From: an uncultured cyanobacterium
Lineage (GTDB): Bacteria > Cyanobacteriota > Cyanobacteriia > Cyanobacteriales > Cyanobacteriaceae
Length of the DNA: 64,000 nucleotides
Direction: 5' to 3'
Assembly (NCBI GenBank): GCA_963710605.1
Contig: CAVQBA010000004.1
Location: 32,001-96,000, forward strand
Under the pieces are notes generated by a model. That model was not told the origin of the DNA. It searched no databases and was given only the letters and a program-made list of their open reading frames with translations. Below are positions 3,787 through 37,651 of the stretch, one piece after another (the stretch's first letter is position 1; every line of letters starts with the position of its first letter). The position numbers were made by a program, and so were the translations under genes.

Positions 3787-4768
3787 TTAGTAGTATAAAC
3801 CAGCTTCTTGAACTTTCTCGATTTGTTTTTTCTTTAATACTAAAAGAATTTGAGAAAGCATAATACCAGCAATCAATACTAATAAACCAGCAATACGAGC
3901 AGGGTTTTGTAAGACAACTTCAGTATCTTTTTGTCCGAAACCACCGACGTTAGGATTGTTAGTTAAAGCTTCACCAGTTGCAATTTCTTGACCTTGAGCT
4001 ACGATTAATTCAGGTCCAACGGGGATATCAACTGTATTAGCTTCACCGGCTTCGTCGGTAATAGTTACTGCATAACCACCAGCACCATCTTCGGTGATAC
4101 TACTAATTGTACCTGTAGCGTTCGATTTGTATAAGTTGTTGTTACTAAGTTGTCCTGTAGGATAAACTTGTCCTCTACCTCTGTTTGCACCTAAGTGTAC
4201 AGAAAATTTACCGTAGTTAACATTTGGGTTTGTTGCAGGATCGGGGGATAATACAGGGAAGACAATCTCTTCATAACTATCACCAGGTAATGGTCAGTAC
4301 AAGAACCCAATTTTCTTTACCATCACGATAAGATTGATAGTAAGTTCCTTCGATTTTTTCCTTCATTTCATCAGGAATACGATCGTCTGGAGCAATTTGG
4401 AAGCCATCAGGTAACATCAAAACAGCACCAACATTTAATGGCGCTCTTGAACCATCAACTTGTACTTGTTGTACATCATGGTCATAAGGTATTTTAACAA
4501 TCGCTTCAAATACACTATCAGGTAAGACAGATTGAGGAATTTCAACTTCTGCCGGTTTAGCCGCTAAGTGACAGTTAGCACAGACAATACGTCCAGTTGC
4601 TTCACGAGGAGTCATTGGAGCAGTTTCTTGTGCCCAAAAAGGATATGCTTGTGCCGACGATGGTAAGACGATATCACTAGCTAATAGTAAGCAAACAGAA
4701 ACAATCGCTACTAAAACTATTTTGTTTATTTTACCGATTACTTTTGTCAAAAAAGATTTATTTTTCAT
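3787..4768 (-). CDS. petA: Apocytochrome f; one frameshift near 4295, probably a sequencing error
   Basis: Signal peptide, then YPFWAQ and heme motif CANCH; the shifted frame continues [19 protein letters not shown]...[11 protein letters not shown]...[19 protein letters not shown]. Confidence 0.96.
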
Positions 4769-4862
4769 TGATATTTACAATTTATACGAAATCAAGTCTC
4801 AAGATATTGTTTTCTTGAGCGAAATTAATTTAAGGATTGATGAAATGTGTTGTGCTAACTAC

Positions 4863-15495: not shown

Positions 15496-16322
15496 TTATT
15501 CATATCTTCTTTTTTTTGATTTGATAACTTGGGTTACATCATCATGTTTTTGTCGTGGAATAATATCTTTTAAATGAAGTTCACCATCAATATATTGAAT
15601 ATGAATCCGTCAACCAGAAGTTTTATCAATATCAGCACAGCAATTCTCATTTTGAAGAAGAATATATGTAACACAACAATAATTATATTGTAAATATTCA
15701 TAATTAAATCTAAATTAGACGATTATCAGTTCTGATTTTTCTTTTCTTTGTTATATTACATCAGCACTTCAAAAAAATAGTCATCACAAACTAGACCTAA
15801 TTTTCTTGCTTGATAAAAATTAGGCTTCTTTCTGTGATATTCATTACTTCAAAATCAACTTACCTTTACTGTTTATTTTTTCTCTTTTTAACTTGTGTTG
15901 ATTAACTTTCTTTCTTCTCCTTCCGTTAGTACAAATATGAATAAATCCTGCCAACTTTCAAACCATATATATTTCAATAACGCTCTTATATCATTAAAAA
16001 ATGTTTTTCTCCTCACTAATTTGTCTCTAATTTTTTGATAGTTAACATTCACTAATTCTAAAACATTGTGAAAGAGAAATCCTAGTAGATTTAATGATAA
16101 CAATATTTCGGACAAATTCATGTCAGCACGATAAATAGCTTTTTTAATGCCTCTAATTTTATGTAATCTCGTTTTCGGAAATTTTCTCTGTTGATGACAA
16201 TTTTTATCTTCTAATTCTGCTAATGCTTCTAAAAAAGATAGTTTAAGTTCATTACTCGGCAAAATCTTTATTGCTTCATAGATAATACCATATTCATCTT
16301 TTAGATTAATAAATTGAGCCAT
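15496..16322 (-). pseudogene. Probable RelE/ParE-fold toxin gene split by an IS remnant
   Basis: N-half ends ...LHKIRGIKKAIYRAD at ~16122; C-half ADIDKTSG*RIHIQYIDGELHLKDIIPRQKHDDV...YE* resumes at ~15636; internal TGA at 15610-15612. Confidence 0.65.
15638..16122 (-). mobile_element. Truncated IS (ISNCY-like transposase C-terminus) with a flanking direct repeat
   Basis: Encodes NLSEILLSLNLLGFLFHNVLEL...RKTFFNDIRALLKYIWFESWQDL; probable end CAGCAATTCTCATTTTG at 15638; TCAGCA repeated at 15632-15637 and 16123-16128. Confidence 0.7.
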
Positions 16323-16331
16323 TTTCAAAAT

Positions 16332-16718
16332 TTAAACAGTTTCTAAAATTTCTTTTCTCTCTTGTAAAAAATCTTGATATAGTGACTGTGCTATACCTCT
16401 ATATATATTTTCTAAATTTACTCTTTTAACAACTCGAAAAAAAGTAAAAATTCTTTGTTCAAAAATAGGATCTTCATCTATTGCAAATATTACCCTTAAA
16501 TCTTGATTTATGTTCATAATATACAAAGAAGATTCATCATCAGATAAATTAGATAAATTTAAGGGAATTTGATAAACCTTTTGATAAAACCTTTGCCGAT
16601 TATTAGATAATAAACTTATATAATAATTTGTTTTTTCTATAATCTTAGTTTTTTCTTTTTTAGTAAAATTAGTAATATCTTTTTCAAATGCTTTGGTTGA
16701 TTCGACTAAAATTTCCAT
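16332..16718 (-). CDS. RelE/ParE-fold toxin-like protein
   Basis: MEILVESTKAFEKDI N-terminus and SLYIMNINQDLRVIFAID core fit the RelE superfamily. Confidence 0.6.
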   Translation of the reverse strand: MEILVESTKAFEKDITNFTKKEKTKIIEKTNYYISLLSNNRQRFYQKVYQIPLNLSNLSDDESSLYIMNINQDLRVIFAIDEDPIFEQRIFTFFRVVKRVNLENIYRGIAQSLYQDFLQERKEILETV

Positions 16719-16738
16719 ATTTTTAATCTTAGTATAAG

Positions 16739-16800
16739 TTAGTTGTCAATTTTAAGATCTTTTTTAAACTGATTTGAAACCTGAATTTGTCTTATGGCTC
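16739..16800 (-). pseudogene. YafQ-like toxin N-terminal remnant
   Basis: IRQIQVSNQFKKDLKIDN* directly downstream of the DinJ/RelB antitoxin. Confidence 0.5.
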
Positions 16801-16834
16801 AATATTTAATTCATCATATAAATCATCGATCGAA

Positions 16835-17059
16835 TTATATTTTTTTTGCATCGCTCAAATCTTCATTCAAAGTATCAATAGTTATTTGATTATAGCTTTT
16901 TCTTTGGATCGGAAATGGAATACCATCATTGATTAAAATTTGATGAAAGTAAAGATTAATCGCCTGTGAAGTTGTTAATCCTAAACTAGCTAATACTTCT
17001 TCAACTGATTCTTTGAGTTTGGGATCTACTCTAACACCGATCGTTGTAGTTTTACTCAT
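16835..17059 (-). CDS. RelB/DinJ-family antitoxin
   Basis: IGVRVDPKLKESVEEVLASLGLTTSQAINLYFHQI..GIPF ribbon-helix-helix signature. Confidence 0.88.
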   Translation of the reverse strand: MSKTTTIGVRVDPKLKESVEEVLASLGLTTSQAINLYFHQILINDGIPFPIQRKSYNQITIDTLNEDLSDAKKI

Positions 17060-17190
17060 AATTATTTTATCCCAAGTTTCCTAACAATGTATGTACATAG
17101 TATAACTTTTCTCTTGCTAATTAAGTTTAACTAGCGTTGTACTTTAATTGAAAACTAAATTACTCGTTGTAATATTGGTTTCTACGTTAA

Positions 17191-17463
17191 CTAATTAAAA
17201 ATGCGATTCGACGTAGTCGCACCTTTGGTGAGCGCATCTTGATGATTGTCATCACTAATAATAACTTCTAAAGAAGAAGGATTAGGAATAAAATCTCCAT
17301 CTTCAATTATTAAATCAATATGTCCGTTTAGGGCTTCTGTTGCCATTATTTGAGCTTCTTCGATCGTCTCTCCTGCACTAATACAACCAGGGAAGTCATA
17401 AAATTGTACACCGTAGTCACTGTCTTTGTCTTTGTGTACTGTTGCGATATATTTATTATTCAT
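17191..17463 (-). pseudogene. hicB: HicB antitoxin copy 1, C-terminus disrupted by a 25-nt insertion
   Basis: YGVQFYDFPGCISAGETIEEA; near-identical to 18195-18488 except for the insertion at 17208-17232. Confidence 0.8.
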
Positions 17464-17476
17464 AACTAACTCATCA

Positions 17477-17664
17477 CTATCTTAATTTTAACCGTGCTTA
17501 TTTTTCTATACTAATTAATGTTTTTAAAGGAATATCTTTTTAGGGTGAACTACTGTCACTTTTCCACTTTTCACAGAATGCTTAAAATGATGATGACTAC
17601 CTGTTATTTTTACTAAATACTATCCATCTTGTTCTAGTTTTTTGATTATTTCTTTACTTTTCAT
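17477..17664 (-). pseudogene. hicA: HicA toxin pseudogene
   Basis: MKSKEIIKKLEQDG*YLVKITGSHHHFKHSVKSGKVTVVHP, with two premature stops and an indel; not in the ORF track. Confidence 0.78.
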
Positions 17665-17669
17665 TCATT

Positions 17670-17925
17670 TTAATAAGCATCTTTACGATGTACAGCACTT
17701 ACAATAAGTACGATCGTTTCTTCATCTTTAATTTGATAAATCACACGATAGTTTCCGACTCTAATTCGATAAGTTTGCTCGTAACCTTTGAGCTTTTTTT
17801 ACTCCATTGGGGCGAGGTTGATTAGCTAAAAGTTTGATCGCTTCAATAATTCTGTTTTTTTCTTTCTGTGGAAGATTATTTAGTTGTTTTTGAACAAGTT
17901 TAGGAATAATAATTCTATAACTCAT
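17670..17925 (-). CDS. relE: RelE-family toxin (frameshift in the T-run near 17794)
   Basis: MSYRIIIPKLVQKQL...NQPRPNGVK / KLKGYEQTYRIRVGNYRVIYQI...HRKDAY*; ATGA overlap with the upstream gene. Confidence 0.82.
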
Positions 17926-18131
17926 TGTTGATTCGCTTCATATTCTTCTAAAGTTAGGTAATCTCCTGCTTCATAATCTTTGAGAGATTGTGATATACTC
18001 ATTTTTTCTTCTAAAGTAATATCTTCTTCTACATATCTTGCTTTGATAAACAAAACGTAATCAAGAAGTTGGGAAACTAGAGACTCAGGTATTTCTTCTA
18101 TTTCCTCAATAAGTTGCTGTTTTAAAGTCAT
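17922..18131 (-). CDS. Putative antitoxin (DUF2281-like)
   Basis: 69-aa acidic ORF (LIEEIEEIPESLVSQLLDYVLFIK) translationally coupled to relE. Confidence 0.65.
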   Translation of the reverse strand: MTLKQQLIEEIEEIPESLVSQLLDYVLFIKARYVEEDITLEEKMSISQSLKDYEAGDYLTLEEYEANQQ

Positions 18132-18194
18132 AAGGTTTGATTTTCTATTTATTCTTTATTTCATTATTTAATTAAGTTTAACTAGCGTTGTACT

Positions 18195-18488
18195 TTAATT
18201 AAAAACTAAATTACTGGTTGTGATATTTATTGAGACATTAACTATTAAAAATGCAATCGCATCTTGATGATCGTCATCACTAATAATAACTTCTAAAGAA
18301 GAAGGATTAGGAATAAAATCTCCATCTTCAATTATTAATTCAATATGCCCATTTAAGGCTTCTGTTGCCATTATTTGAGCTTCTTCGATCGTCTCTCCTG
18401 CACTAATACAACCAGGAAAATCGTAAAATTGAACTCCATAGTCACTGTCTTTATCTTTGTGTACTGTTGCGATATATTTATTATTCAT
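18195..18488 (-). CDS. hicB: HicB antitoxin copy 2 (intact)
   Basis: FYDFPGCISAGETIEEAQIMATEAL..IPNPS; a cognate hicA survives only as a fragment near 18670-18710. Confidence 0.85.
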   Translation of the reverse strand: MNNKYIATVHKDKDSDYGVQFYDFPGCISAGETIEEAQIMATEALNGHIELIIEDGDFIPNPSSLEVIISDDDHQDAIAFLIVNVSINITTSNLVFN

Positions 18489-18558
18489 AACTAACTCATC
18501 ACTATCTTAATTTTATAGTCGTTTAAAATAATGATGAGACAATTTTCGAGATAAATTT

Positions 18559-18613
18559 GAGTTTAATTTATTAAACGGTATCTATTAGCCTTGTAATTCA
18601 TACCCAAGGCGGG
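18559..18613 (+). repeat. Family B palindromic repeat
   Basis: Matches 11184-11241. Confidence 0.75.
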
Positions 18614-18948
18614 ATAAAGATTTAAGTTTTAGAGATAATTAATATTGTCTCAATCTTAATTAAAATTACTATAACTTTGCTTGTTTTTCTATACTAATTA
18701 ATGTTTTTAGATAGTGTCGTCAAATTATTTTACTCCATAACTCGATACATCTTATCTGTACGGCGGCTAAGAATGAACTGGTACGCTTCATGTCTTGATT
18801 TCCGCCTTGTCTTGGTGTGCGTTCGGTGTTTTGGTCAGCCTTCTTTTCTTGGTGAACATTCCCCTGCGTCTTCGGCTTCCGTCAGCGGGTTATCACCGCT
18901 TTGCTCCTGCAGGATGAGGATGTACTTTACAATGGGAGGCATCGATCG

Positions 18949-19533: not shown

Positions 19534-21505
19534 ATGTCTGAACAGAATAATTTATCCCTTTCCCAGACAGGAGATACATTAAAAGCGAGAGAAGAAGCAT
19601 CTTCTGAAAAAACATCCTATAAAAGACTCAAAGAATTAGCCCAAAGTGAAGATAAAGAGACTCGTCGCCTAGTCACGGCAAATAACAAAACCTCAGTTAA
19701 GGCGTTAACTCAAAAAATATTATTTCAGTTAGTACAAGAATTTCCCGAAGAGTTTTTACGCAATACTAACCTCCAATCTTGGCTCGATTATCTAGATTAT
19801 GAAGTTTTATATTCTAAAATTCCTTTTGAATCCTTACAAAGTTTGCTTAAAAATCCAAATGTGCCAATAAATTTAATTGAGTGGACGATAGAGAACAACA
19901 AAAATAATCTATATCAAGCTATTGTAGAAAACCCTTCAGTTAGTAAATCGACATTAAATATTCTGGAAGAAAAATGCCAAGAAGAATCAATCATTAAAGC
20001 AATTCATTTACACAGTAATTGGCAAGAAAAAGATAAAAATTTATACTTTGAGTTTTTGCAACAAAATTTACTCAATTTAGATGTGCATACATATAAATGG
20101 TATCAATTAAGAAAAATATTTGATGAAGATAAGATTGATGTTTCAATATTTTTAAATTGGTCATATATTAATTTAGAAAATGCTAATTTAGAAGGTGCTA
20201 ATTTAGACGGTGCTAATTTAGAAGGTGCTAATTTAAAAGATGCTAATTTAGAAGATGTTCATTTAGTAGGTGCTAATCTAAACGGTGCTAATCTAAACGG
20301 TGTTCATTTAGTAGGTGCTGATTTAAAAAATGCCAATCTAAACGGTGCTTATCTAACAGGTGCTAATTTATTAAGAAATACTAATTATCTCTTCAAAACT
20401 ACTCGACTAGAAGGTGCTGATTTAGAAAATGCCAATCTAAGAGGTGCTAATCTAACAGGTGCTAATTTAATAGATGCTAATCTAAAAAGTGCTGATTTAA
20501 AAAGTGCTGATTTAGACGATGCTGATTTAAAAAGTGCTGATTTAGACGGTGCTAATTTAAAAGGTGCTAATCTAAACGGTGCTAATTTAGAAAGTGCTAA
20601 TCTAACAGGTGCCAATTTAATAGTTGCTAGTCTAAGATGGGCTAATTTAGAAGGTGCTAATTTAGAAGGTGCTGATTTAGAAGGTACTAATTTAGAAGGT
20701 GCTGATTTAAAAGGTACTAATCTAAACGGTGCTAATCTAAAAAGTGCTGATTTAGACGGTGCTAATTTAGAAGGTGCTAATTTAGAAGGTGCTGATTTAA
20801 AAGGTGCTGATTTTTATTTAAAAAGTGCTAATCTGAAGAGGTGCTAATTTAAGAGGTGCTGATTTAAAAGGTGCTGATTTAAAAGGTGCTGATTTAAAAG
20901 GTGCTGATTTAAAAGGTGTTGATTTAAAAGGTGCTGATTTAAAAGGTGCTGATTTAGAAGGTACTAATCTAAACGGTGCTAATCTAAACGGTGCTAATCT
21001 AAACGGTGCTAATTTAGAAGATGCTGATTTAGAAGGTACTAATCTAAAAAGTGCTAATCTAAAAAGTGCTAATCTAAAAAGTGCTAATCTAAAAAGTGCT
21101 AATTTAGAAGATGCTAATTTAGAAGATGCTGATTTAGAAGATGCTGATTTAGACGGTGCTAATTTAGACGGTGCTAATTTAGTAGGTGCTGATTTAGACG
21201 GTACTGATTTAGACGTTGCTTATTTAATAGATAAAGATGAATTGGATAATATAGTTGAGGAGATAGAATCGATCGCTGGTGAAATTCAAGAGTATTATGA
21301 TAGGGGCTCTTATGATTATATAGATGAAGGGCTTGAGCCTAGTGATGTTCGAGATGAAGTTGATGAGCTTAAAGACAAGCTAACAACACTTCAAGATGAA
21401 CTATTGGACAAAATTTCAGTATTAAAAAACATAGATTCAGACACATACAAATATTATGATGATTATAGTTTTAAATACGAATACTTTGAAGGAGCATTAG
21501 AGTAG
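19534..21505 (+). CDS. HEAT/LRV-repeat N-terminus + ~70 pentapeptide repeats + acidic C-terminal domain; one gene with a +1 frameshift near 20835
   Basis: RLKELAQSEDKETRRLV, KNPNVP and ENPSVS LRV-like motifs; A(N/D)Lxx repeats; the frame from 20840 is open into ORF 21242-21505. Confidence 0.82.
20167..21226 (+). repeat. 15-bp coding tandem repeat (GGTGCT(A/G)AT(T/C)TA(G/A)A(A/C))n
   Basis: Directly visible; encodes the pentapeptide repeats. Confidence 0.95.
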
Positions 21506-21525
21506 TAATCAAATACATCTATACA

Positions 21526-22662
21526 ATGGAAATAATTGCTGTCGGTAGTGCAGAAAACAAAAGAATCAAGTTATTTAAAGAAGCCATAAATAAACGAAAT
21601 CTTACCCTCAAAAATCTCATTACCTACGATCGAATTATCGATAATCCTAGCTTAATCAATCAATTCATCGACAAGAATACGATTATTCGCTTTGACTCTC
21701 CTGAGAGAAATTTTGACATTCAAAAGAAAATAATAGAAGTTGGTTATAATCCTCATAATAACAGTAAAAATAAACAAATATCTCCTAAACAATTAAACAA
21801 CTTTCCTTTTATTAAAGGAGAAATTCGCTACCCAAAACAATTTTTTCAAGGATGGCAAAAACTACTTAAACTATGGGGTGATAACTTACAAATCAAAAGT
21901 TTTAATCATCCTTATGATATAGCTAAAATGTTTGATAAAACTTACTGTAACAATCTTTTTGCTCAGAATAAATTACCCGTTGCCCAATCATTAGGAAACA
22001 TAACTTGCTATGAAGAATTAAAAGAAACGATGTATCAGCAAGGTTACCAAAAAGTCTTTATCAAATTAGCTCATGGTTCATCAGGTTCAGGAGTTGTTGC
22101 TTATAATTTAGGTGAATATAATCAACCTGAATCTGCCATTACTACCGTCGATATAAGAAGAAGAAAAAACGATATTAAGCTATTTAATTCTCGCCAAATT
22201 AAAACCTATAAGAATAAACAAAATATCAAAGATATAATTAATTATCTTTGTGCAGAAGAAGTACAAGTAGAAGAATGGTTACCGAAAGCTAAATTAGGTG
22301 ATTACCCCTTCGATTTAAGAATTGTAGTGATTAACGGAGAACCACAACATACTGTGGTTAGACTTGGTACAAGGGGAATAATTACTAACTTACATTTATT
22401 AAACAAAAGAGGAAATTTAGAAGATTTTTTAAATAAAGTTCACCCGAAACAATGGGAAAAAATGCAAGAAACTTGTGTAAAAGCATTATCTTTATTTCCG
22501 AATAGTTTGTATGCTGGAGTTGATTTATTAGTTTATCCAGACTTTAAGCAACACGCTATTTTAGAAATTAATGCTTTCGGAGATTTATTACCCAACTTAT
22601 ACTGGCAAGGAATGGACACTTATACTAGTGAATTAGTGAGTTTGCAAAAACTTTATTGTTAA
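21526..22662 (+). CDS. STM4014-like ATP-grasp protein
   Basis: IIRFDSP, MFDK, VFIKLAHGSSGSGV, VEEWLPK, DLRIVV, ITNLHL, YAGVDLL, LEINAFGDLLP. Confidence 0.85.
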   Translation: MEIIAVGSAENKRIKLFKEAINKRNLTLKNLITYDRIIDNPSLINQFIDKNTIIRFDSPERNFDIQKKIIEVGYNPHNNSKNKQISPKQLNNFPFIKGEIRYPKQFFQGWQKLLKLWGDNLQIKSFNHPYDIAKMFDKTYCNNLFAQNKLPVAQSLGNITCYEELKETMYQQGYQKVFIKLAHGSSGSGVVAYNLGEYNQPESAITTVDIRRRKNDIKLFNSRQIKTYKNKQNIKDIINYLCAEEVQVEEWLPKAKLGDYPFDLRIVVINGEPQHTVVRLGTRGIITNLHLLNKRGNLEDFLNKVHPKQWEKMQETCVKALSLFPNSLYAGVDLLVYPDFKQHAILEINAFGDLLPNLYWQGMDTYTSELVSLQKLYC

Positions 22663-22714
22663 TATCAAAAGTTAGTAAAAATCAAAAATGAACAAATAAA
22701 GTAGGTGTATATAA

Positions 22715-23518
22715 ATGTTTAATATGAATAATATTGTAGGTAAATATGACATTTTATTTATAACCTTAGATACTTTAAGATATGATGTTGCAGTCAAACT
22801 ATATCAATCAGGAAAAACTCCCAACTTAAATAAAATATTACCCCCTACAGGTTGGGAGAAAAGACACACTTGTGGTAACTTTACTTATACTGCTCATCAT
22901 GGCTTTTTCGCTGGTTTTTTACCTACCCCTATCACTGATGCTATTCATTCTCGTCTCTTTGCATTAAACTTTCAAGGAAGTACAACAACCACAGAAAATA
23001 CTTGTATTTTAGAAGGAGAAAATATAGTAGAAGGACTAGCCAAAAAAAATTATCGTACTGTGTGTATTGGCGGGGTAGGATTCTTTAATAAAGCAACCTC
23101 TTTAAGTTGTGTATTTCCCAATTTTTTTCAAGAAAGCTACTGGGATAAAAGTTTAGGAGTAACAGATATAAATTCTACTCACAATCAAGTTAATTTAGCT
23201 TTAAATATCATTAACAAAACACCTTTATATCAACGATTATTTTTATTTATTAACATCTCAGCTTTACATCAACCAAATTACTTTTACTTAAATCCAGATA
23301 GAGAAGATAAAAAAGATTCTCTCCAATCCCATGCCGCCGCATTAGAATATATAGATAAGGAATTATTACCTCTATGGCAAACATTAAAGGAAAGACATCC
23401 TACTTTTGTTATTTTAACTTCAGATCATGGTACAGCTTACGGTGAAGATAATTATCACGGTCACCGCTGTGGACATTCTATCGTGTGGACAGTTCCTTAT
23501 GCTAAATTTATTTTATAA
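22715..23518 (+). CDS. STM4013/SEN3800-like hydrolase (alkaline phosphatase/sulfatase superfamily)
   Basis: DILFITLDTLRYDVA, GNFTYTAH, ALHQPN, TSDHGTAYGED, GHR. Confidence 0.85.
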   Translation: MFNMNNIVGKYDILFITLDTLRYDVAVKLYQSGKTPNLNKILPPTGWEKRHTCGNFTYTAHHGFFAGFLPTPITDAIHSRLFALNFQGSTTTTENTCILEGENIVEGLAKKNYRTVCIGGVGFFNKATSLSCVFPNFFQESYWDKSLGVTDINSTHNQVNLALNIINKTPLYQRLFLFINISALHQPNYFYLNPDREDKKDSLQSHAAALEYIDKELLPLWQTLKERHPTFVILTSDHGTAYGEDNYHGHRCGHSIVWTVPYAKFIL

Positions 23519-23529
23519 AATTTTGGTTC

Positions 23530-24872
23530 ATGAATTCATTGACAATTGATAATAAGCAAACTATAACAGAATTATTAGAAGATTCACCTTATCGGACTTA
23601 TGTTTATTCTTATCCCCATAAAACAGCCTATCGTAGCCTTAATCCTCCTTTAAAATTAAAAGATATTTGGGCAGAGGAACAAAAAGATGCTTTATTTTTA
23701 TATTTCCATATCCCTTTTTGTGAAATGCGATGTGGTTTCTGTAATTTATTTACTACTGTCAGTAATAATCAAGAATTATTTAATCAATACATTAATCAAT
23801 TACAAAATCAGGCTAAAGTAGTTAAAGAAAAATTAGGAGATATATCTTTTTCTCGTTTTGCTTTAGGAGGAGGAACACCAACTCAATTATCTTTTACTCA
23901 ATTGGAAAAAACTTTCAATATAGCAGAAAATATTTTCAATCTAGATTTACAAACTATTCCTTCATCAGTTGAAGTATCCCCAGAAACAGCAACTAAAGAT
24001 AAACTTCTTTTACTTAAACAAAAAGGAATCAAAAGAATTAGCATTGGTATTCAAAGTTTAATTGATGATGAAGTTTTAGCCATTCAGAGAAGACAAAATA
24101 GTAAGCAAGTAAAGCAAATTTTAGAATTAATTAAAAGTTATAATTTTCCTATTTTAAATATTGACCTAATTTATGGATTACCCAATCAAACTATTCATTC
24201 ATGGTTACAATCATTAGAAATAACTATTAGTTTTGAGCCAGAAGAAATTTATCTTTATCCTCTTTATGTTCGTCCTCTAACAGGGATAGATAAAACAAAT
24301 AAAGAATGGGATGATATTCGTCTTGATTGTTACCGACAAGGAAAACAATTTTTATTAGCTAACGGTTATGAGCAAGTATCGATGCGAATGTTTCGTTTAT
24401 CCTCTAATCAAGTAAAAAATGAGCCTGTTTATTGCTGTCAATCTGATGGTATGATTGGCATAGGATGTGGAGCTAGATTTATACTCGCCGAGTTCACTAT
24501 TCTAATGATTATGCTGTTAACGATAGAAATATTATTAGTATTATTAATAACTATCTTAACAATCAAAAAGAAGAATTTACTTTCACTAATTATGGTTTTA
24601 TTCTTAATCAAGACGAACAAAAACGACGTTATTTATTAATCTCCTTATTATCGGCAGAAGGATTGAATATTAATTTATATAAACAGATATTTAATAGCGA
24701 TATATGGAAAGACTTACCAACCCTTAAAAATTTCATAAACCATAAACTAATTTACCTTGAAAATAATATATTAAGATTGTCAAACTTAGGCTTAGAAAAG
24801 TCAGATACGATTGGATTTTATTTGTTTTCTCCTCAGGTTATCTCGTTGATGAATAATTATGAGTTAAAATAA
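23530..24872 (+). CDS. STM4012-like HemN-type radical SAM protein (frameshift near 24478 joins ORFs 23530-24639 and 24663-24872)
   Basis: YVYSYPHKTAYR, LYFHIPFCEMRCGFC (CxxxCxxC), GGGTPT, NIDLIYGLP, YLYPLYVRP; the shifted frame reads YTRRVHYSNDYAV...DEQKRRYLL. Confidence 0.87.
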
Positions 24873-24892
24873 TAGTGATTTTTTTTGTCAAG

Positions 24893-25747
24893 ATGAAATT
24901 AACAATTCTTTATCGGGGTTCACTATCAAGTTGTAACTATGGTTGTGAATATTGTCCCTTTGCCAAACAACAGCAATCAGCTCTAGAATTAGCTCAAGAT
25001 AAGCAAGAAGTAAAAAAATTTATTAATTGGATTGAAAGTAACACTGACTATGAAATGACTATTTTCTTTACTCCTTGGGGAGAAGCACTAATTCATTCTT
25101 GGTATCAAAAAGCATTAATCAAACTATCCCAAGTAAATCATCTTGATAAGGTAACGATTCAGACAAACCTATCTTGCCCTGTTGATTGGGTTGAACAATG
25201 TAATCCAGAAAAAGTAGCTTTATGGACGACTTTTCATCCTCAATGGAGTAATTTGGAGCAGTTTATCGAAAAATGTATTTTTCTCGAAAACAAAAAGATT
25301 AAATTTAGTGTTGGTGTTGTCGGTTTTCCCCATTTTATACCCATCATTAAACAATTGAGAGAAAAGTTAACGGATGACATTTATTTATGGATTAATGCAG
25401 TCAAAAAACAACTACCTCAAATGTCAGCAAAAGAATTAAATTTTTTTGCCAAAATTGATCCTTTATTTGAGCTTAACACTAATCATTATCAATCATTAAA
25501 TCGATTCTGTCGAACTGGTGCTTCAGTTATTTCTGTTGATGGTGATGGGGTAATAAAAAGATGTCATTTTATTCAAAAACCATTAGGAAATATTTACACT
25601 GATGATTTACAGTATATATTAAAAGAGAGGGTTTGTACTAATCAAGCTTGTCATTGCCATATTGGTTATGTCCATTTAGATTATTTAAAGTTAGAAAAAA
25701 TATATGGCGATTGCATAATTGAAAGAATCCCCTTGAATTATCCTTAA
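24893..25747 (+). CDS. STM4011-like radical SAM protein with Cys-rich SPASM/twitch-like C-terminus
   Basis: ILYRGSLSSCNYGCEYCPFAK, FFTPWGEAL, IQTNLS, CRTG..DGVIKRCHF..CHCHIGY. Confidence 0.87.
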   Translation: MKLTILYRGSLSSCNYGCEYCPFAKQQQSALELAQDKQEVKKFINWIESNTDYEMTIFFTPWGEALIHSWYQKALIKLSQVNHLDKVTIQTNLSCPVDWVEQCNPEKVALWTTFHPQWSNLEQFIEKCIFLENKKIKFSVGVVGFPHFIPIIKQLREKLTDDIYLWINAVKKQLPQMSAKELNFFAKIDPLFELNTNHYQSLNRFCRTGASVISVDGDGVIKRCHFIQKPLGNIYTDDLQYILKERVCTNQACHCHIGYVHLDYLKLEKIYGDCIIERIPLNYP

Positions 25748-25771: not shown

Positions 25772-26881
25772 ATGACTTCTCCTGAAAATTTACAAATTTT
25801 GTCAGAGTGTGTTAACACCTCATCACCAAGCGTTACTCGTTTAATGGCTTTAACCCATCCAAATCTTCCTTTAGAAGGCTTAATAAATTGTTCGGATTCT
25901 ATTGCATGGGAAGAAAGACACGCTGTAGCCAATCATCCTAATACCCCTAAATCAGTTTTAAAAAAATTAAAACAGGATGTTAATTCTTTAGTGATTGAAG
26001 CGGCAACTCAAAATTGGCAAAATCGTTTTACGGAAAACGAAGAAGAAGAAGGTAATAAATTAACTCATAAAATAGAAAATTTTGACGAAAATAATAGTCT
26101 AGATATAGATAATAATGATATAGATCAAAATCAAAGTGAAAATCAAGAACAACTTAATAATAATGAATTTGATCAAGAATTAAGTAAATTATTAGCTATA
26201 CAAAAAGAAAATAAATATAAACCTACATGGGTTTATTCAAATCTAAAAAATGATTTTACTTTAACTTATCCAAATCTTAAAAAAATTGCTAAGGCTTTGG
26301 ATTATAAAGAAGGATGGGCGTATTATAAATATATTGAAATTTGCCGAGACAAAATAACTAATTCATCTAACCATGAAGAAAAATTAGAATTTATTAATAA
26401 CTTCATTAATGCACATCCAGAATTTGCTGATTTATATATTATCAGAGCTGATTTATATCAAGAGAATAATCAATACAATGAATCATATGAAGATTATACT
26501 AATGCAATAAAATTAAAAAATGACAAGACTGAATATTATCAAAAAAGAGCTAACTTGTGTTTATTAATAAACAAACAGGAACAAGGCATTGAAGATTGTT
26601 ATCAAATTTTAGATTTATATGATAAAGAAGATAATAAATCGAAGAAAAAGCAAGAAGCGATCGACAAATGTTTAAGCCTACTCGATAAATTTAATCAATA
26701 TCCGCATATAACTAGGGATAATATTATCGATAATGCTCAACTTGAAATAGGTGACTGGGTTACAGAAATCAATTATGCCCAAATAATAGCAAAGAATAAA
26801 GAATCAATGACTCTTAAATCTTTACTTGGTAATGAGAAAAAAATAATATTTAATGAAACAGAATCAAATTATTTATTCTAG
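25772..26881 (+). CDS. LRV/HEAT-repeat + YKxxW motif + TPR protein
   Basis: WEERHAVANHPNTPKSVLKKLKQDVNSLVIEAA; YKPTWVY and YKEGWAYY; TPR-like LYIIRADLY...DYTNAIKL, YYQKRANL. Confidence 0.65.
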   Translation: MTSPENLQILSECVNTSSPSVTRLMALTHPNLPLEGLINCSDSIAWEERHAVANHPNTPKSVLKKLKQDVNSLVIEAATQNWQNRFTENEEEEGNKLTHKIENFDENNSLDIDNNDIDQNQSENQEQLNNNEFDQELSKLLAIQKENKYKPTWVYSNLKNDFTLTYPNLKKIAKALDYKEGWAYYKYIEICRDKITNSSNHEEKLEFINNFINAHPEFADLYIIRADLYQENNQYNESYEDYTNAIKLKNDKTEYYQKRANLCLLINKQEQGIEDCYQILDLYDKEDNKSKKKQEAIDKCLSLLDKFNQYPHITRDNIIDNAQLEIGDWVTEINYAQIIAKNKESMTLKSLLGNEKKIIFNETESNYLF

Positions 26882-27314
26882 CAGTTTATACTCTAAAGAA
26901 TCAGAAATTTGTATAGAAGAACTAGGTAATTTACTACAGCAAAAAAACAACATTATAACCTTAGCTATAACCTGTAAAAAAGAGTTTTCCCAATCATTAT
27001 TAAAGCAGAGCATTTGGGATCATATTTTACCATCTTTAAAAAATAAAAATGACGATAATAAAGAATTAGAAACAATTAAACAAATTATTGATGAAACTAT
27101 ACATGAAATAGTAAACGTAAGTAATGAAACCATTATCGGTTGTATTTTTAAAAATTATTTTTCAGAACAAAAAGTTAAGATAATTACTATTAATCATGTA
27201 AGAAAAGAGCGAAAATTACTCACTATAAATTATGAATCAATTGAGAGTATAGTATTTCAAAATATTAAGTATAATATTAGAAAATTAAAAAAAGCTATCT
27301 TGAAACCTGTTTGA
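26853..27314 (+). CDS. Hypothetical protein
   Basis: 153-aa ORF overlapping the previous gene's end; no family recognised; could be a frameshifted continuation. Confidence 0.45.
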   Translation: MKQNQIIYSSSLYSKESEICIEELGNLLQQKNNIITLAITCKKEFSQSLLKQSIWDHILPSLKNKNDDNKELETIKQIIDETIHEIVNVSNETIIGCIFKNYFSEQKVKIITINHVRKERKLLTINYESIESIVFQNIKYNIRKLKKAILKPV

Positions 27315-27594
27315 AGAGTCTTAATAAACTCCAGAAAAAAATATGACTCAATTATCCTGTAGAATTACTTGTTATTTCCACAAACCATTTTGGTAACTCA
27401 GGTAGTCTATATTGTCTATGAAATATAAAGATTGACGTTCTGATTAACTGTAGTTTAGACTTAATAACTCTGCTTTAGACTAATTTAAAACCTCAAACTC
27501 GAAATTGAGAATAAATCATTAACTTAATTTATTTGATTAATCATCGTCTAAAGCAAGTAATATTAATAATTATATAACAGTATTTAATGCAATC

Positions 27595-27712
27595 TATAGC
27601 GTTTATTAAAAACATGAGTTACAGTTTGTTTTTACTACCATTGCGAGAATGGCTATTCCCCATTCCCTCACTTCGATAATTGGTGTACCTCATCTTAATC
27701 AGAATTGCTATA
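27595..27712. repeat. Family A-like element with shared ends but a different interior
   Basis: TATAGCGTTT...GTACCTCAT...TTGCTATA termini resemble copies 2-4. Confidence 0.5.
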
Positions 27713-27785
27713 TATAGTTTCGTAAGAGTTTAAAACCAGAAAAAACAAGCTAAACTCTTGAAAAAATAACAATAATGAAAATAGA

Positions 27786-28634
27786 ATGGAAATACAACAA
27801 ATTAAAATTTTATTGCAACTATTAAAACAAAATGATTATCAAGGAAAGATAGGAGAAATTAAACCGAATAGTAAAACAACAATTAGCGTTACTGAAAAAC
27901 TTTGTTATCAATTATATGATAGAGAATTAATTGAAATCACAGAAAAAAATCAGACAATTATTTGTAATAAAAAATCAGATCAAGTAATAAATAACGATCG
28001 ATATAATCAATTAGAACAAAAAATACTACAACAATGTCAGAATAAAAAAGTAAAAATTTCTACAATAAAAATTACTCCTGCCAGTAAACGAGACTTATTG
28101 ATAGAAAAATTAGCGAAAGAAAAGTTAATTACTATTACTGATAAAAAAATTACTCATGTTAAATTAGTAGAAAAAGGTCAACAATTTTTAGCCGAAGAAC
28201 TATTAGTAGAAGGATTAAGTAATGTTACTTTATTTAAACCATTATTAAATGATTATTTAACCTTTATTCGTAATTATTTTCAAGCTAAAAATAAACATAT
28301 ACTATATTCAAGTAAAATTTTAAATAAAACAGAAGAAAAAGAAAATATTGAGCATGATAAACCTATTAACTCTGATGATGTTTTACAAGTAATAAAAAAA
28401 CTAGATCAACAATTAAATACAGATAATTATTTACCAATTTTTCATCTGAGAAACTATTATCAACAGTTTTTATCAAGACAAGAACTAGACAATATAATAT
28501 TTACATTACAGAAAAAAAATAAAATATCTCTTAGTCGCCTCGTTGATGCCTCTCAATATACAGCAGAAGAATATCAAGCAGGCATTCCCCAAAGTATCGG
28601 TTATCCGATTTTCTATTTAATAGTTAAGGAATGA
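27786..28634 (+). CDS. RcaD-like cyanobacterial protein (probably winged-helix)
   Basis: C-terminal DDVLQVIKKLDQQLNTDNYLPIFHLR..LSRQELD..ISLS..AGIPQ..IFYLIV matches my recollection of proteins annotated RcaD; followed by an ATPase gene. Confidence 0.6.
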   Translation: MEIQQIKILLQLLKQNDYQGKIGEIKPNSKTTISVTEKLCYQLYDRELIEITEKNQTIICNKKSDQVINNDRYNQLEQKILQQCQNKKVKISTIKITPASKRDLLIEKLAKEKLITITDKKITHVKLVEKGQQFLAEELLVEGLSNVTLFKPLLNDYLTFIRNYFQAKNKHILYSSKILNKTEEKENIEHDKPINSDDVLQVIKKLDQQLNTDNYLPIFHLRNYYQQFLSRQELDNIIFTLQKKNKISLSRLVDASQYTAEEYQAGIPQSIGYPIFYLIVKE

Positions 28635-28752
28635 GCGAAGCTTTAGTTAGAATTTTTTTGTTAATAAGCAGGAAAACTATTTGAGAGCAAAGACTAGCAA
28701 TTTTTTTCATTCACTCGTAGTCAAGTAAAATTTAATATCTTCAATCACAAAA

Positions 28753-30733
28753 ATGCCAAATTTAAAACAAATATTAATTAATTTAAAAAAAGAAGAAGGA
28801 GTTATTCCTAATCTATTTGACGATGTAACTCATGGTAATTTTTGGTTTGAAAAAAACCATAAAGCGACAGTCGAATCCATTCACGAATCAACTTTTAGCA
28901 CAATTGAATCTCAATTAAAACTATTCATCAAAAGTCAATTTAGACAAGCAAAAACAATTTTATTAACAGGAGATGCAGGAAGTGGAAAAAGTCATTTACT
29001 AGGAAGTTTAAAAAATAAATTAAACTCTGAAGCTTATTTTGTTTATATTCAACCCATTGAAGACTATCGTTATTTTTGGCGACATATTTTGCAATATACT
29101 GTCACCAGTTTAATGCAAATACCCGAAGGAGAAACAGAATCTCAATTACAGCTATGGCTAAAAAGTTTGCCTGTATTTAATTCTCCCGATTGGGTAGATA
29201 AATTATTAGGACAAAAAAAAGCCTTTGTTCGTCTATTAAAAAATACTTATCCTGCTGGTATTGTTGAAGCAAGAAAATTTTTCAGTATTTTATACGAGTT
29301 AACCACAGAGAATTATGATTTAGCTTGTGACTGGTTAGCAGGTGAAGATTTAGACGAAGAAGATTTACAAATTTTAGGAGTTAGAAAACCTATTGATAAT
29401 GAAAAACTAGCACGAGGAATTTTCAGTAATTTTGGTAGAATTACGGATACAACTAAACCCATTATCATCTGTTTCGATCAAATTGAAAGAGCTTGTAATA
29501 ACGTTTTTAATATCAATACAACTTTTCATAATGAGCGTTTAGTTAATTTTTTAATCTTAATTAGTATTACTAGAGAGAATTGGCAAACCTACAAAAAAAC
29601 GATGCTTCAATCAGATATAGCTCGTATTAATGAGACAATTTTTCTCGATGATATAACTGTTGAAGAAGCAAAACAATTATGGATTAATCATCTTCAACCT
29701 TTGCATCTTCAATCTAATCCTCAACCAAACTCTAGTATTTATCCTTTGAAGGAAGAAATATTAGCAAAAAATGCTTTAGGAGAAAGAATTAATCTTCGAG
29801 TTGCTTTAAATTTAGCAGGTAAAAACTTTCAAGAATTTATCAACACATTACCAGAGTATGAGGATGAAGATGATAAAATTCCACCACCACGTCCGTATTT
29901 TTTGCAAAAATGGGAGCAAGTATTTAAAGAAAGTGAAGAACGAGAAAAAAGTATAGTCTTAAAAACTTTCAAGAAGTACAGTGACGAAGAGTTTCTCGAA
30001 ATGTTTAGATATATTTTTCAGTGTCTAGGTATCGAAAATATTAATCCTAAGTTTTTAAATGGGATAAATGCCACTAAAGGATTTACTTTTACTTGTCCAA
30101 AAACCGGTACTAAAAAGGGTTTTACAGTTAATAATACTTGTAATACAAATTCTTTTACAGCATTTATGAAAGAATGCAAAACAGTATGGGAACAAAATGA
30201 ATGTCAACAGTTAATTTTAATTAGAAATTTTGATGGTCCAAAAGAAAGGACACAAATAGGTGCGCAAATATATCAAGAGTTTATTTAAACCAATGTCTGA
30301 AACCTGTATTCGCCAGAAATTAAAAATAGAAGATTTATATTATCTTTTTACTTATCAAAAAATGTATAAAGATGCTGTGTCGGGTGATTTATTCATCAAT
30401 TTTAAACAAATTTCAATCAAAGAATTATTATCAGATATGAGCAGATATAACATATTAAACAATGCTCAAGTTTTACGAAATCTAGGTTTAGTAAAGTCAG
30501 TTCCCGAAAAAAGTGTAATTGAAAATAATATCAATGCTATTTTAGTCGATTGAGACGAAATTAGTTTTTCGGAATTCTACAACAAAGTGAAACAAGATAT
30601 AAATTTTTATAACTACTTTATTCCTCCTTATTTTTTACGTGACTTGATTTGTCATCTTCATAAAAATAAATCTGTACTAAAAATTATTAATCCTAAAGAT
30701 TTATTTACAGAATGGAGAATTTCTTCTTTATGA
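28753..30733 (+). CDS. P-loop (AAA-like) ATPase, RcaG-like; frameshift near 30283 and in-frame TGA at 30551-30553
   Basis: Walker A GDAGSGKSHLL, Walker B IIICFDQIE; ORF 30260-30553 and the in-frame tail to TGA 30731-30733 read as its C-terminus. Confidence 0.72.
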
Positions 30734-31250: not shown

Positions 31251-31640
31251 CTATCTCCGAGTTTTCACATCAGGATAATCTAATATTTTACGATCGAGTG
31301 TAAATAAAGAACAATCATAAACTTTTGCTGTTGCGACAATAATTTGGTCGGCAGGGTCTTTATGAAAGTTAACTAATTTGGTAGATTGAATAATAATAGG
31401 GATAGTCAAATCAATTAACACTATATCTGGATAAGCTAATGCTTGAGTTAACCAATCTTCAACTGGTATGTTTAATCCTAGTCTTTGTTTTTCAACTAAT
31501 TTAGCTATTTCCCAACAAGAAATTACACTAATTCCTAATCCGTCGGTACGATAATTTTCAATTAAATCAAATTGAAATTCTGTCAATCGAGGATTTTTTT
31601 CTACCCACCAAATAAAAATATGTGTATCTAATATAATCAT
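31251..31640 (-). CDS. vapC: VapC PIN-domain toxin
   Basis: MIILDTHIFIWW, ISCWEIAKL, HKDPADQIIVATA; ATGA overlap with the upstream gene. Confidence 0.88.
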   Translation of the reverse strand: MIILDTHIFIWWVEKNPRLTEFQFDLIENYRTDGLGISVISCWEIAKLVEKQRLGLNIPVEDWLTQALAYPDIVLIDLTIPIIIQSTKLVNFHKDPADQIIVATAKVYDCSLFTLDRKILDYPDVKTRR

Positions 31641-31855
31641 GTTAAAACATCCCAATCATCCTCTGAAGTCGCAGATTCAAAAGGATTATGATAATAAATA
31701 ACCGAACCTTCTAAAGGATATTTACTCGATCGATTTATATTTTTTTCTTGAGTTATTTGTTTACTTTTAAAATCAGTAATTTGTTTTAATATATTGGTCA
31801 ACAAATATTCTGGTAGAGAATCAATTTCTGCAATTATTTTCTCTTTATTATTCAT
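31637..31855 (-). CDS. Putative antitoxin
   Basis: 72 aa with C-terminal YPLEGSVIYYHNPFES..DW; coupled to vapC. Confidence 0.72.
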   Translation of the reverse strand: MNNKEKIIAEIDSLPEYLLTNILKQITDFKSKQITQEKNINRSSKYPLEGSVIYYHNPFESATSEDDWDVLT

Positions 31856-36980: not shown

Positions 36981-37346
36981 ATGAAAAAGTTAATGACTAA
37001 ACATTTTTCAAAATGGCTGTTAAAACAAAAAATCTCTTATGATGAACTTAAAAAGAACTTAAGTGAGCTTAAACAAGGTAATTTTGAAGCTAATTTAGGA
37101 GGATATTTATACAAAAAAAGAATTCGATTTAAAAATCGGGGTAAAAGAGGTAGTGGCAGAATAATTATTTGTTATGAAAAAGAAAATCGAGCAATATATA
37201 TTTATGGTTTTGCTAAGAACGAAAAATCAAATCTTTCTAAAAAAGAATTAACTGCTTTTAAAGAATTAGCTAAAATTTTACTTAATCTTTCGGAAGCAGA
37301 ATTAGAAATAGCTATCAAAAATAAAGATTTTATTGAATTAAAATAA
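36981..37346 (+). CDS. RelE/HigB-2-like toxin
   Basis: FEANLGGYLYKKRI..RGKRGSGRII..IYGFAKNEKSNLS. Confidence 0.87.
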   Translation: MKKLMTKHFSKWLLKQKISYDELKKNLSELKQGNFEANLGGYLYKKRIRFKNRGKRGSGRIIICYEKENRAIYIYGFAKNEKSNLSKKELTAFKELAKILLNLSEAELEIAIKNKDFIELK

Positions 37347-37651
37347 TGAGAAAATCGATCGCAGAATCTATAACATCTACAGTTAGTGACTTACATAAAA
37401 GTGGACTAGTAGATGAAATTACTATGAAAAATATCCACAATCTTTGTCTTCCTGAAATTAAGGAGTATTCAGCCAAAGAAATTGTTGATATTAGAGAAAA
37501 ATATCGTTTAAGTCAAGCCGCTCTTGCAAGTATTTTTAATCTTAATGTCTCAACAGTACAAAAATGGGAACAAGGAAGTAAAAAACCGAGTAATGCTTCA
37601 CAAAAACTATTAGATATTATCGATCGTAAAGGTTTAGATGTTTTTATTTAA
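37346..37651 (+). CDS. XRE-family HTH antitoxin (HigA-like)
   Basis: IREKYRLSQAALASIFNLNVSTVQKWEQGSKKPS; TAATG coupling to the toxin. Confidence 0.88.
   Translation: MRKSIAESITSTVSDLHKSGLVDEITMKNIHNLCLPEIKEYSAKEIVDIREKYRLSQAALASIFNLNVSTVQKWEQGSKKPSNASQKLLDIIDRKGLDVFI

Follow-up and report, generated by a model that had tools for sequence, protein, structure and literature searches.

A cyanobacterial variant of the STM4015-STM4011 gene cassette with a pentapeptide-repeat protein in the place of STM4015 and a candidate C-terminal tag

Several ATP-grasp enzymes – RimK with ribosomal protein S6, LysX with LysW, and tubulin tyrosine ligase – have the C-terminal glutamate of a protein as their target, and the substrates of the RimK-type enzymes are the C-terminal glutamate carboxylates of proteins such as S6 and LysW. 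A putative ATP-grasp enzyme of this kind is encoded in the STM4015-STM4011 cassette, a set of genes named after their Salmonella LT2 members (NCBIfam families NF038076, NF038074, NF038075, NF006067 and NF038073, respectively, for STM4015, STM4014, STM4013, STM4012 and STM4011). The cassette already has a name and is uncharacterised, and our full-text literature searches found no functional study of it; a table row in PMC3844500 lists a sigma-54 site for STM4013. Here we describe a locus of this type in a window of 64,000 nucleotides, the whole stretch of DNA that was analysed, from an uncultured cyanobacterium (GenBank assembly GCA_963710605.1, contig CAVQBA010000004.1, positions 32,001 to 96,000). 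Four cassette enzymes are encoded there, directly downstream of a gene for a pentapeptide-repeat protein that stands where the leucine-rich repeat (LRR) protein STM4015 is expected. The reading that we favor, and hold to be probable with appreciable room for doubt, is that the locus is a variant of the cassette in which the LRR partner has been replaced by the pentapeptide protein, and that the four enzymes modify the C-terminal tail of their partner post-translationally. What the partners of these cassettes appear to have in common, judging from their sequences, is not a fold but a short C-terminal tag, with an aromatic residue five positions before a terminal glutamate.

Gene content of the locus

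The window has a G+C content of about 31% and a cyanobacterial gene content, including petA, petC, GUN4, Uma2 nucleases, and numerous toxin-antitoxin genes; the host assembly as a whole comprises 7 contigs and is 84.88% complete. Eleven proteins of the region were compared with NCBIfam models at their curated cut-offs, and with Pfam. Five co-oriented genes are present at 19534-25747 (+), encoding the pentapeptide-repeat protein followed by STM4014, STM4013, STM4012, and STM4011, and their features are as follows.

19534..20847 (+): 5' part of the pentapeptide gene in the assembly, 437 codons, encoding an LRV-like alpha-solenoid (residues 1-205) and then the repeats (Pfam Pentapeptide, 218.5 bits)
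20833..20847 (+): frameshift, one extra base at about 20836-20839; frame 1 terminates with TAA (20845-20847), whereas frame 2 stays open from 20837 onwards
20837..21505 (+): 3' part of the pentapeptide gene, read in frame 2, with 222 codons between stops and repeats to about 21227 (Pfam Pentapeptide, 156.3 bits)
21242-21502 (+): acidic, Tyr-rich tail of 87 residues, in the second reading frame after the repeats
21482..21502 (+): proposed C-terminal tag, the last seven codons (Y-F-E-G-A-L-E) and then the stop, proposed for its likeness to pentapeptide-type tails
21526..22662 (+): STM4014-family ATP-grasp enzyme, 378 residues (NF038074, 356.5 bits, cut-off 175)
22715..23518 (+): STM4013/SEN3800-family hydrolase of the alkaline-phosphatase superfamily, 267 residues (NF038075, 394.8 bits, cut-off 250; Pfam Sulfatase and Phosphodiest)
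23530..24480 (+): STM4012-family HemN-like radical S-adenosylmethionine (SAM) enzyme, N-terminal part with CxxxCxxC present (NF006067, 452.5 bits, cut-off 380, profile positions 1-299 of 427)
24480..24872 (+): STM4012, C-terminal part in the next frame (NF006067 profile positions 361-427 on 24663-24872)
24875..25747 (+): radical SAM enzyme of the STM4011 family, 290 residues from GTG, its C-terminal half rich in Cys (NF038073, 393.6 bits, cut-off 200)

An earlier note on this DNA, made from the sequence without database searches, had recognised these five gene families and their common orientation, and had proposed that the four enzymes are the STM4014-STM4011 cassette, normally found with an STM4015-family gene; the present analysis agrees on these points. 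All four enzymes score above their NCBIfam cut-offs, STM4012 doing so through its N-terminal part, which joins the C-terminal part only across a frameshift; the Pfam superfamily assignments are concordant (ATP-grasp, sulfatase/phosphodiesterase, and two radical SAM enzymes), and the order on one strand is that of an annotated Deinococcus plasmid locus, STM4015-4014-4013-4012-4011. The note had also described gaps of about 10-50 bp between the five genes. The tight spacing holds only if the pentapeptide frameshift is read through, when the gaps are 20, 52, 11, 2, and 24 bp (the last separating STM4011 from the following gene); as assembled, the pentapeptide open reading frame (ORF) ends at 20847, 678 bp before STM4014. 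The genes are also not all intact, and the note mentioned neither break: the pentapeptide gene and STM4012 are both frameshifted as assembled, the latter split by one base at about 24477-24480, and homologues align back to back onto the two STM4012 parts. Reading through its frameshift, the pentapeptide gene extends from 19534 to 21505 and encodes a protein of about 655 residues, with its stop codon 20 bp before STM4014. A 15-nt repeat array at 20169-21227, consisting of 69.5 near-identical copies according to Tandem Repeats Finder, is unbroken across the frameshift at 20836-20839.

The pentapeptide protein occupies the position of STM4015, as the note had supposed, and no STM4015 was found elsewhere: the best NF038076 match in the 84.88%-complete host assembly scores 25.9 bits against a cut-off of 275, and that model has no hit at E ≤ 0.01 among the 11 window-region proteins. 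In a sample of 401 genomes spread evenly over the cyanobacterial order, STM4014 is present in 23. Leaving the host aside, one or more Glu-tailed STM4015-like genes accompany STM4014 in the stretches from 21 of the other 22, and the stretch without one is a contig of 5.4 kb; that contig apart, the host is the only one of the 23 for which no STM4015-like gene was found nearby. The STM4014 family itself is widespread, with 2790 database proteins at E ≤ 1e-10. Among 41 genomes (the host and 40 relatives), STM4014 scores above the cut-off in the host only. Metagenome scans gave no close relative of the window STM4014.

The enzymes were compared at the level of sequence. The STM4014 enzyme is RimK-like, with the Pfam models ATPgrasp_YheCD and ATPgrasp_ST each matching 15 of 16 family members and RimK matching 7 of 16. 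Alignment of the STM4011 family reveals invariant cysteines at C20/C24/C27 and, in the C-terminal half, C212/C230/C254/C259/C261, and suggests that the true start of the window protein is the Met codon at 24893; Pfam SPASM matches 2 of 15 members. The window enzymes retain all of the columns that are invariant in the three enzyme alignments (A1-A3), noting that they are themselves included in those alignments. Single-sequence searches of solved structures with STM4014, STM4013, and STM4011 gave no match, and with profiles only STM4013 gave weak matches, to arylsulfatase and nucleotide pyrophosphatase chains, the STM4014 and STM4011 profiles returning noise. Fusion of STM4013 to STM4012 was considered for those loci with long STM4012 ORFs and rejected, the extensions having no STM4013 match.

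The C-terminal tag of cassette partners

The proteins encoded near STM4014 were compared across 80 loci with STM4014 relatives, in 75 of which STM4014 was located by ORF calling. One cluster of neighbours contains 178 proteins from 66 loci. Among 27 of its members that were scanned, 22 match the STM4015 model at E ≤ 0.001 (11 of them above its cut-off), three have WD40-type propellers, and two are without a match; Pfam reveals HEAT/GUN4_N-like N-termini and a single SUKH domain. There are several common features. First, the terminal residue is Glu in 128 of the 178 cluster proteins, compared to 58 of 1000 other ORFs. Second, the ending R-[YF]-x4-E is present in 121 of the 178 (for example RYCSVAE, RYYSVWE, and RYVAVGE), compared to 7 of 1000 other ORFs, and six of these seven are apparent further paralogues or the pentapeptide protein of locus L030. 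Third, the 121 tagged proteins come from 62 of the 80 loci, and the STM4015 of the Deinococcus plasmid likewise ends WRFVALGE. Finally, loci of the Nostocales (L014-L055) encode up to five tagged STM4015 paralogues each, often with one between STM4012 and STM4011, along with untagged WD40 and SUKH proteins that share the HEAT-like N-terminal domain.

A related ending is present on pentapeptide proteins. In three other cyanobacterial genomes those adjoining STM4014 end [YR]-Y-E-x3-E, a consensus with Y or R at -6, Y at -5, E at -4, and E at 0 relative to the C-terminus, and a further copy is encoded by the host itself, at an unlinked site on contig C6.

L038: three pentapeptide proteins upstream of STM4014, one ending YYYEPGYE and two without the tag
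L030 / G360: one pentapeptide protein near STM4014, ending RYELVGE
G319: two pentapeptide proteins directly upstream of STM4014, 28-29 bp apart, ending DYYESSCE and DYYEPGWE
G319, unlinked: one pentapeptide protein, ending HYYEPGYE
Host, G000:C6:433088-434365 (L094:7089-8366) (-): intact tagged pentapeptide protein of 425 residues with a HEAT-like N-terminus, ending YYYEAGAE

The pentapeptide proteins of L038, L030/G360, and G319 carry the HEAT-like N-terminal domain of the cyanobacterial STM4015 paralogues. Within the order sample, Glu-tailed pentapeptide proteins are in the STM4014 stretch of 2 of the 22 other genomes (G319 and G360), in both cases alongside an STM4015-like gene. A quick tree places the STM4014 enzymes of L030, L038, G319, and P0013 in one clade (SH-aLRT 100), and that of the window with P0002 on a separate long branch (1.2).

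The 87-residue tail of the window protein terminates in ...YKYYDDYSFKYEYFEGALE. Compared with the pentapeptide-type tails YYEPGYE, YYEPGWE, YYESSCE, RYELVGE, and YYEAGAE, its last seven residues, YFEGALE, agree at positions -6, -4, and 0, with F replacing Y at -5. It does not fit the R-[YF]-x4-E pattern, with which it has no more in common than a terminal Glu and an aromatic residue at -5; F at -5 also occurs in 2 of the 121 proteins with that pattern. From its sequence, then, the window tail is deviant but plausible as a tag. The protein that carries it is unusual in other respects too, in that its LRV-like head (LRV_2, E 0.007; the nearest Atlas clusters are LRV, score 0.93) and the length of its tail have no counterpart in the other loci.

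The host has 8552 stop-to-stop ORFs of 60 or more residues, and a scan of the full set reveals none ending R-[YF]-x4-E and three ending [YFRK][YF]ExxxE. Two of these three are pentapeptide proteins, namely those of the window and of contig C6, out of 23 pentapeptide-like ORFs in the host (a regular expression count). The C6 protein conforms fully to [YR]-Y-E-x3-E and is unlinked to the window cassette; its gene is located downstream of those for a 1333-residue AAA/HEPN (Swt1-like) protein, an AAA_35 ATPase, and a double-GTPase-like protein. Its N-terminus is 35% identical over 99 residues to an STM4015-type cassette paralogue of L038 (E 5e-11). Twelve of its 13 closest relatives end [YH]YYE[PS]GYE, the thirteenth having the motif and four extra residues, and more distant relatives end YYEPGWE or HYYESRWE. 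When four candidates were scored per genome across the 401 genomes, C6 relatives (E ≤ 1e-30) were present in two, the host and G319, both of which are STM4014-positive. Metagenome scanning for this tagged family turned up a single true relative, encoded on a contig of 1.1 kb.

Proposed tail modification, alternatives and surroundings

Because the tag is the only feature common to partners of two unrelated folds, we infer that it is the substrate of the enzymes. In effect the locus is a natural swap experiment, in which the partner fold has changed from LRR to pentapeptide and the acidic, Glu-ending tail and the position beside the ATP-grasp gene have persisted. Since the fold was swapped and the tail kept, the likely substrate is narrowed to a few C-terminal residues. 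The predicted substrates are the adjacent pentapeptide protein of the window and the unlinked C6 protein (G000:C6:433088-434365). Three steps can be envisaged. First, the RimK-like STM4014 would activate the terminal-Glu carboxylate and form an amide or ester bond. Second, radical SAM enzymes of the SPASM/twitch type form cross-links between side chains (PqqE, for example, joins Glu and Tyr), and HemN-like enzymes catalyse either methylation or the decarboxylation of propionate side chains; the SPASM/twitch-like STM4011 and the HemN-like STM4012 might alter the Tyr at -5 or residues around it, through cross-linking, methylation, or decarboxylation. Third, enzymes of the alkaline-phosphatase fold act on phospho- or sulfo-esters, and STM4013 may add or remove a phospho-ester. 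The locus also suggests that a short tag might confer the modification on other proteins.

A number of observations weigh against this proposal. The proposed chemistry is drawn by analogy from the wider enzyme families, and because no gene of the cassette is for a protease or an evident release enzyme, a released product and a retained modification look alike at the level of the genes. The window tail departs from both tag types, with F at -5 and no R at -6, and is an orphan belonging to no family: searching 1.84 billion proteins with its 87 residues gave two hits, a near-identical 47-residue fragment and an unrelated repeat protein. At the other end of the protein, the LRV-like N-terminus differs from the HEAT-like domain common to the other cyanobacterial partners, and no homologues of residues 1-205 were found. 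Some paralogues in the same loci (WD40, SUKH, and certain pentapeptide proteins) share the N-terminal domain and have no tag, and the number of independent genomes in which tagged pentapeptide proteins and the cassette co-occur is very small. Furthermore, a genome of the same family, G013, has only the 3' third of a window-type STM4014 (C61:8291-8756, L106; 81% nucleotide identity), and the two frameshifts, if real, would mean that the window locus is itself decaying.

A bolder form of the proposal, which we advance tentatively and regard as doubtful, is that the cassette installs a new type of modification, for example a cross-link or cofactor derived from Tyr and Glu, on a portable C-terminal tag of seven residues that evolution has moved between unrelated solenoids (LRR and pentapeptide beta-helix). 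If so, recognition by the enzymes would depend only on the tail, and the repeat proteins that carry the tag would form a family of armed binders or sensors.

Alternatively, the terminal Glu could be a handle on a carrier protein, in the manner of LysW and LysX: STM4014 would tether a small amine or amino acid to it, the radical SAM enzymes and the hydrolase would tailor the attached molecule, and the product would be freed and the repeat protein reused. The RimK-like nature of STM4014 and the acidic, Glu-ending tails are consistent with this, as is the likeness to the acidic Glu-ending C-terminus of LysW and to scaffold-peptide pathways. However, it seems unlikely that the partners are simply carriers. 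First, they are proteins of 300-650 residues with binding-type repeats and up to five paralogues per locus, which ill fits a passive role. Second, the cassette has no conserved peptidase or amidase for release. Third, a pure handle has no need of a conserved aromatic residue at -5.

It is also possible, although we think it quite improbable, that the pentapeptide gene is a chance neighbour in a decaying locus, with STM4015 lost, the cassette eroding, and the Glu ending coincidental. Two frameshifts within 6.2 kb, the long branch of the window and P0002 STM4014 enzymes in the quick tree, and the off-consensus tail speak for this view, and the broken STM4014 of G013 – disrupted by stop codons and by some 120 bp of inserted sequence, with the contig ending 420 bp beyond – shows that real decay occurs in the lineage. 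Nonetheless, several features argue otherwise. The genes are co-oriented with a gap of 20 bp, the tail agrees with the pentapeptide-type tags at three of four conserved positions, the enzymes keep every invariant column of their alignments, and the host encodes another pentapeptide protein, intact and canonically tagged. Moreover, breaks of the same kind interrupt two essential genes: petA (cytochrome f; window 3787-4774, -) is split by a single-base frameshift into an N-terminal part at 4280-4774 and a C-terminal part at 3787-4293, and uvrA (G000:C6:94826-97715) by one inserted base. The two cassette frameshifts are likewise more likely assembly errors than decay, the balance leaning clearly, though not overwhelmingly, that way; that a second assembly interrupts the tail ORF at another position points in the same direction. 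In the host assembly ileS and gyrA are whole, and the rpoB family was not found anywhere in its 7 contigs at 84.88% completeness.

A role in conflict or defence, which the earlier note had thought plausible, would have the variable repeat proteins (LRR, WD40, pentapeptide) acting as sensors that the enzymes arm, or signal through, by way of their tails; this is compatible with tail modification, and we consider it improbable in its own right. Several divergent repeat-domain paralogues are present per locus, the 15-nt repeats of the window are near-identical, and toxin-antitoxin genes and STAND-like ATPases are near both tagged genes, although cyanobacterial genomes are generally rich in such neighbours. 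The database comparisons, however, lend no support. PADLOC 2.0 gives no system for the cassette, with hits at the level of radical SAM only (PDC-M51A, 43 bits, and pVip) and nothing for STM4014, STM4013, or the pentapeptide tail; the three hits among phage records resemble bacterial fragments, none being genuinely of phage; and the plasmid hits are mostly to large replicons (11 of 13 non-mobilizable).

The note had cast the repeat protein as either a substrate scaffold or a resistance factor, and of these the first is in keeping with an acidic, Glu-ending tail like that of STM4015. The second, in which the cassette makes a toxic product (aimed, for instance, at gyrase) and the pentapeptide protein shields the producer as McbG, AlbG, and Qnr do, is very improbable, for although the protein adjoins biosynthetic-looking enzymes and has the weak Qnr and MfpA matches expected of any pentapeptide protein, these fall far under the cut-offs (Qnr 73.6 bits, cut-off 240; MfpA 73.1, cut-off 360), the same position is filled by an LRR protein in 21 of the 22 other order-sample cassette loci, and the Glu tail is common to both kinds of partner, DNA-mimic immunity having no known need for one.

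As for the surroundings, a gene for a 369-residue protein with LRV-like N-terminal repeats and a weak TPR-like match follows STM4011 by 24 bp.

25772..26881 (+): 369-residue protein, first of a series of genes at window 25772-30553 (+) that continues with 153- and 282-residue proteins, a 511-residue AAA_16/STAND-like ATPase, and a 97-residue ORF

The 369-residue protein has no BLAST similarity to the N-terminus of the pentapeptide protein and no relative in the 80 cassette loci, and the same loci contain no relatives of the other genes at 25772-30553, none of which matches a PADLOC system; the ATPase has weak Avs2-type P-loop matches. Toxin-antitoxin genes (RelB, two HicB-like, PIN, and RelE/MqsA-like) flank the locus at window 15888-18488, 31251-31655, and 36981-37651. 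Just upstream of the pentapeptide gene, at about 18512-18690, is a dispersed repeat of about 165 bp with the appearance of a miniature inverted-repeat transposable element, and a 1053-bp query that includes it has 128 blastn matches in the genome. No transposase was seen within the Pfam-scanned part of the window, and the window has no tRNA or Rfam matches. Promoter and terminator scans gave no more matches than expected from shuffling, and the boundaries of a possible island were not evident from relatives, in three of which the 20 kb past mutS holds no further window gene.

Relation to known systems

The closest described system is the STM4015-STM4011 cassette itself. The window has the same four enzymes in the same order, and likewise has a partner gene directly upstream with an acidic tail and a terminal Glu. 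It differs in the partner, which is an LRV and pentapeptide protein with the tag YFEGALE rather than an LRR protein with R-Y-x4-E.

The systems of RimK, LysX, and tubulin tyrosine ligase are similar in that a RimK-like ATP-grasp enzyme is encoded beside acidic, Glu-ending proteins. However, the window STM4014 is under all of the family cut-offs (rimK_fam, 20.5 bits against 143.4), and the cassette adds two radical SAM enzymes and a phosphoesterase and has large repeat proteins as partners. The likeness to the LysW/LysX carrier pathway is in working principle only; the LysW, LysX, LysZ/Y/J/K families are not among the NCBIfam hits of the 11 window proteins, no dedicated search having been made.

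Radical SAM maturation of the PqqA/PqqE type shares with the cassette a SPASM/twitch-like enzyme beside a Tyr and Glu motif of fixed spacing. In the cassette, in contrast, the motif is the C-terminus of a full-size protein and the order is Tyr-x4-Glu, rather than the Glu-x3-Tyr of PqqA, and no PqqB, C, or D, RRE domain, or protease is seen there.

With Qnr, MfpA, McbG, and AlbG the common feature is the pentapeptide-repeat beta-helix. Pentapeptide proteins of the Qnr and MfpA type are roughly 200 residues long; the window protein, with its LRV head and tagged tail, is about three times that length and scores far below the curated thresholds.

Finally, the pentapeptide proteins of L038, L030/G360, and G319 and those of the C6 family (P0122-P0134) share with the window protein both the repeats and a [YR]-[YF]-E-x3-E tail, and are either linked to a cassette or encoded in a cassette-bearing genome. 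These proteins have a HEAT/GUN4_N-like N-terminus and co-exist with STM4015-like genes, whereas in the window protein the head is of the LRV kind, the repeats are far more numerous, and the tail is much longer.

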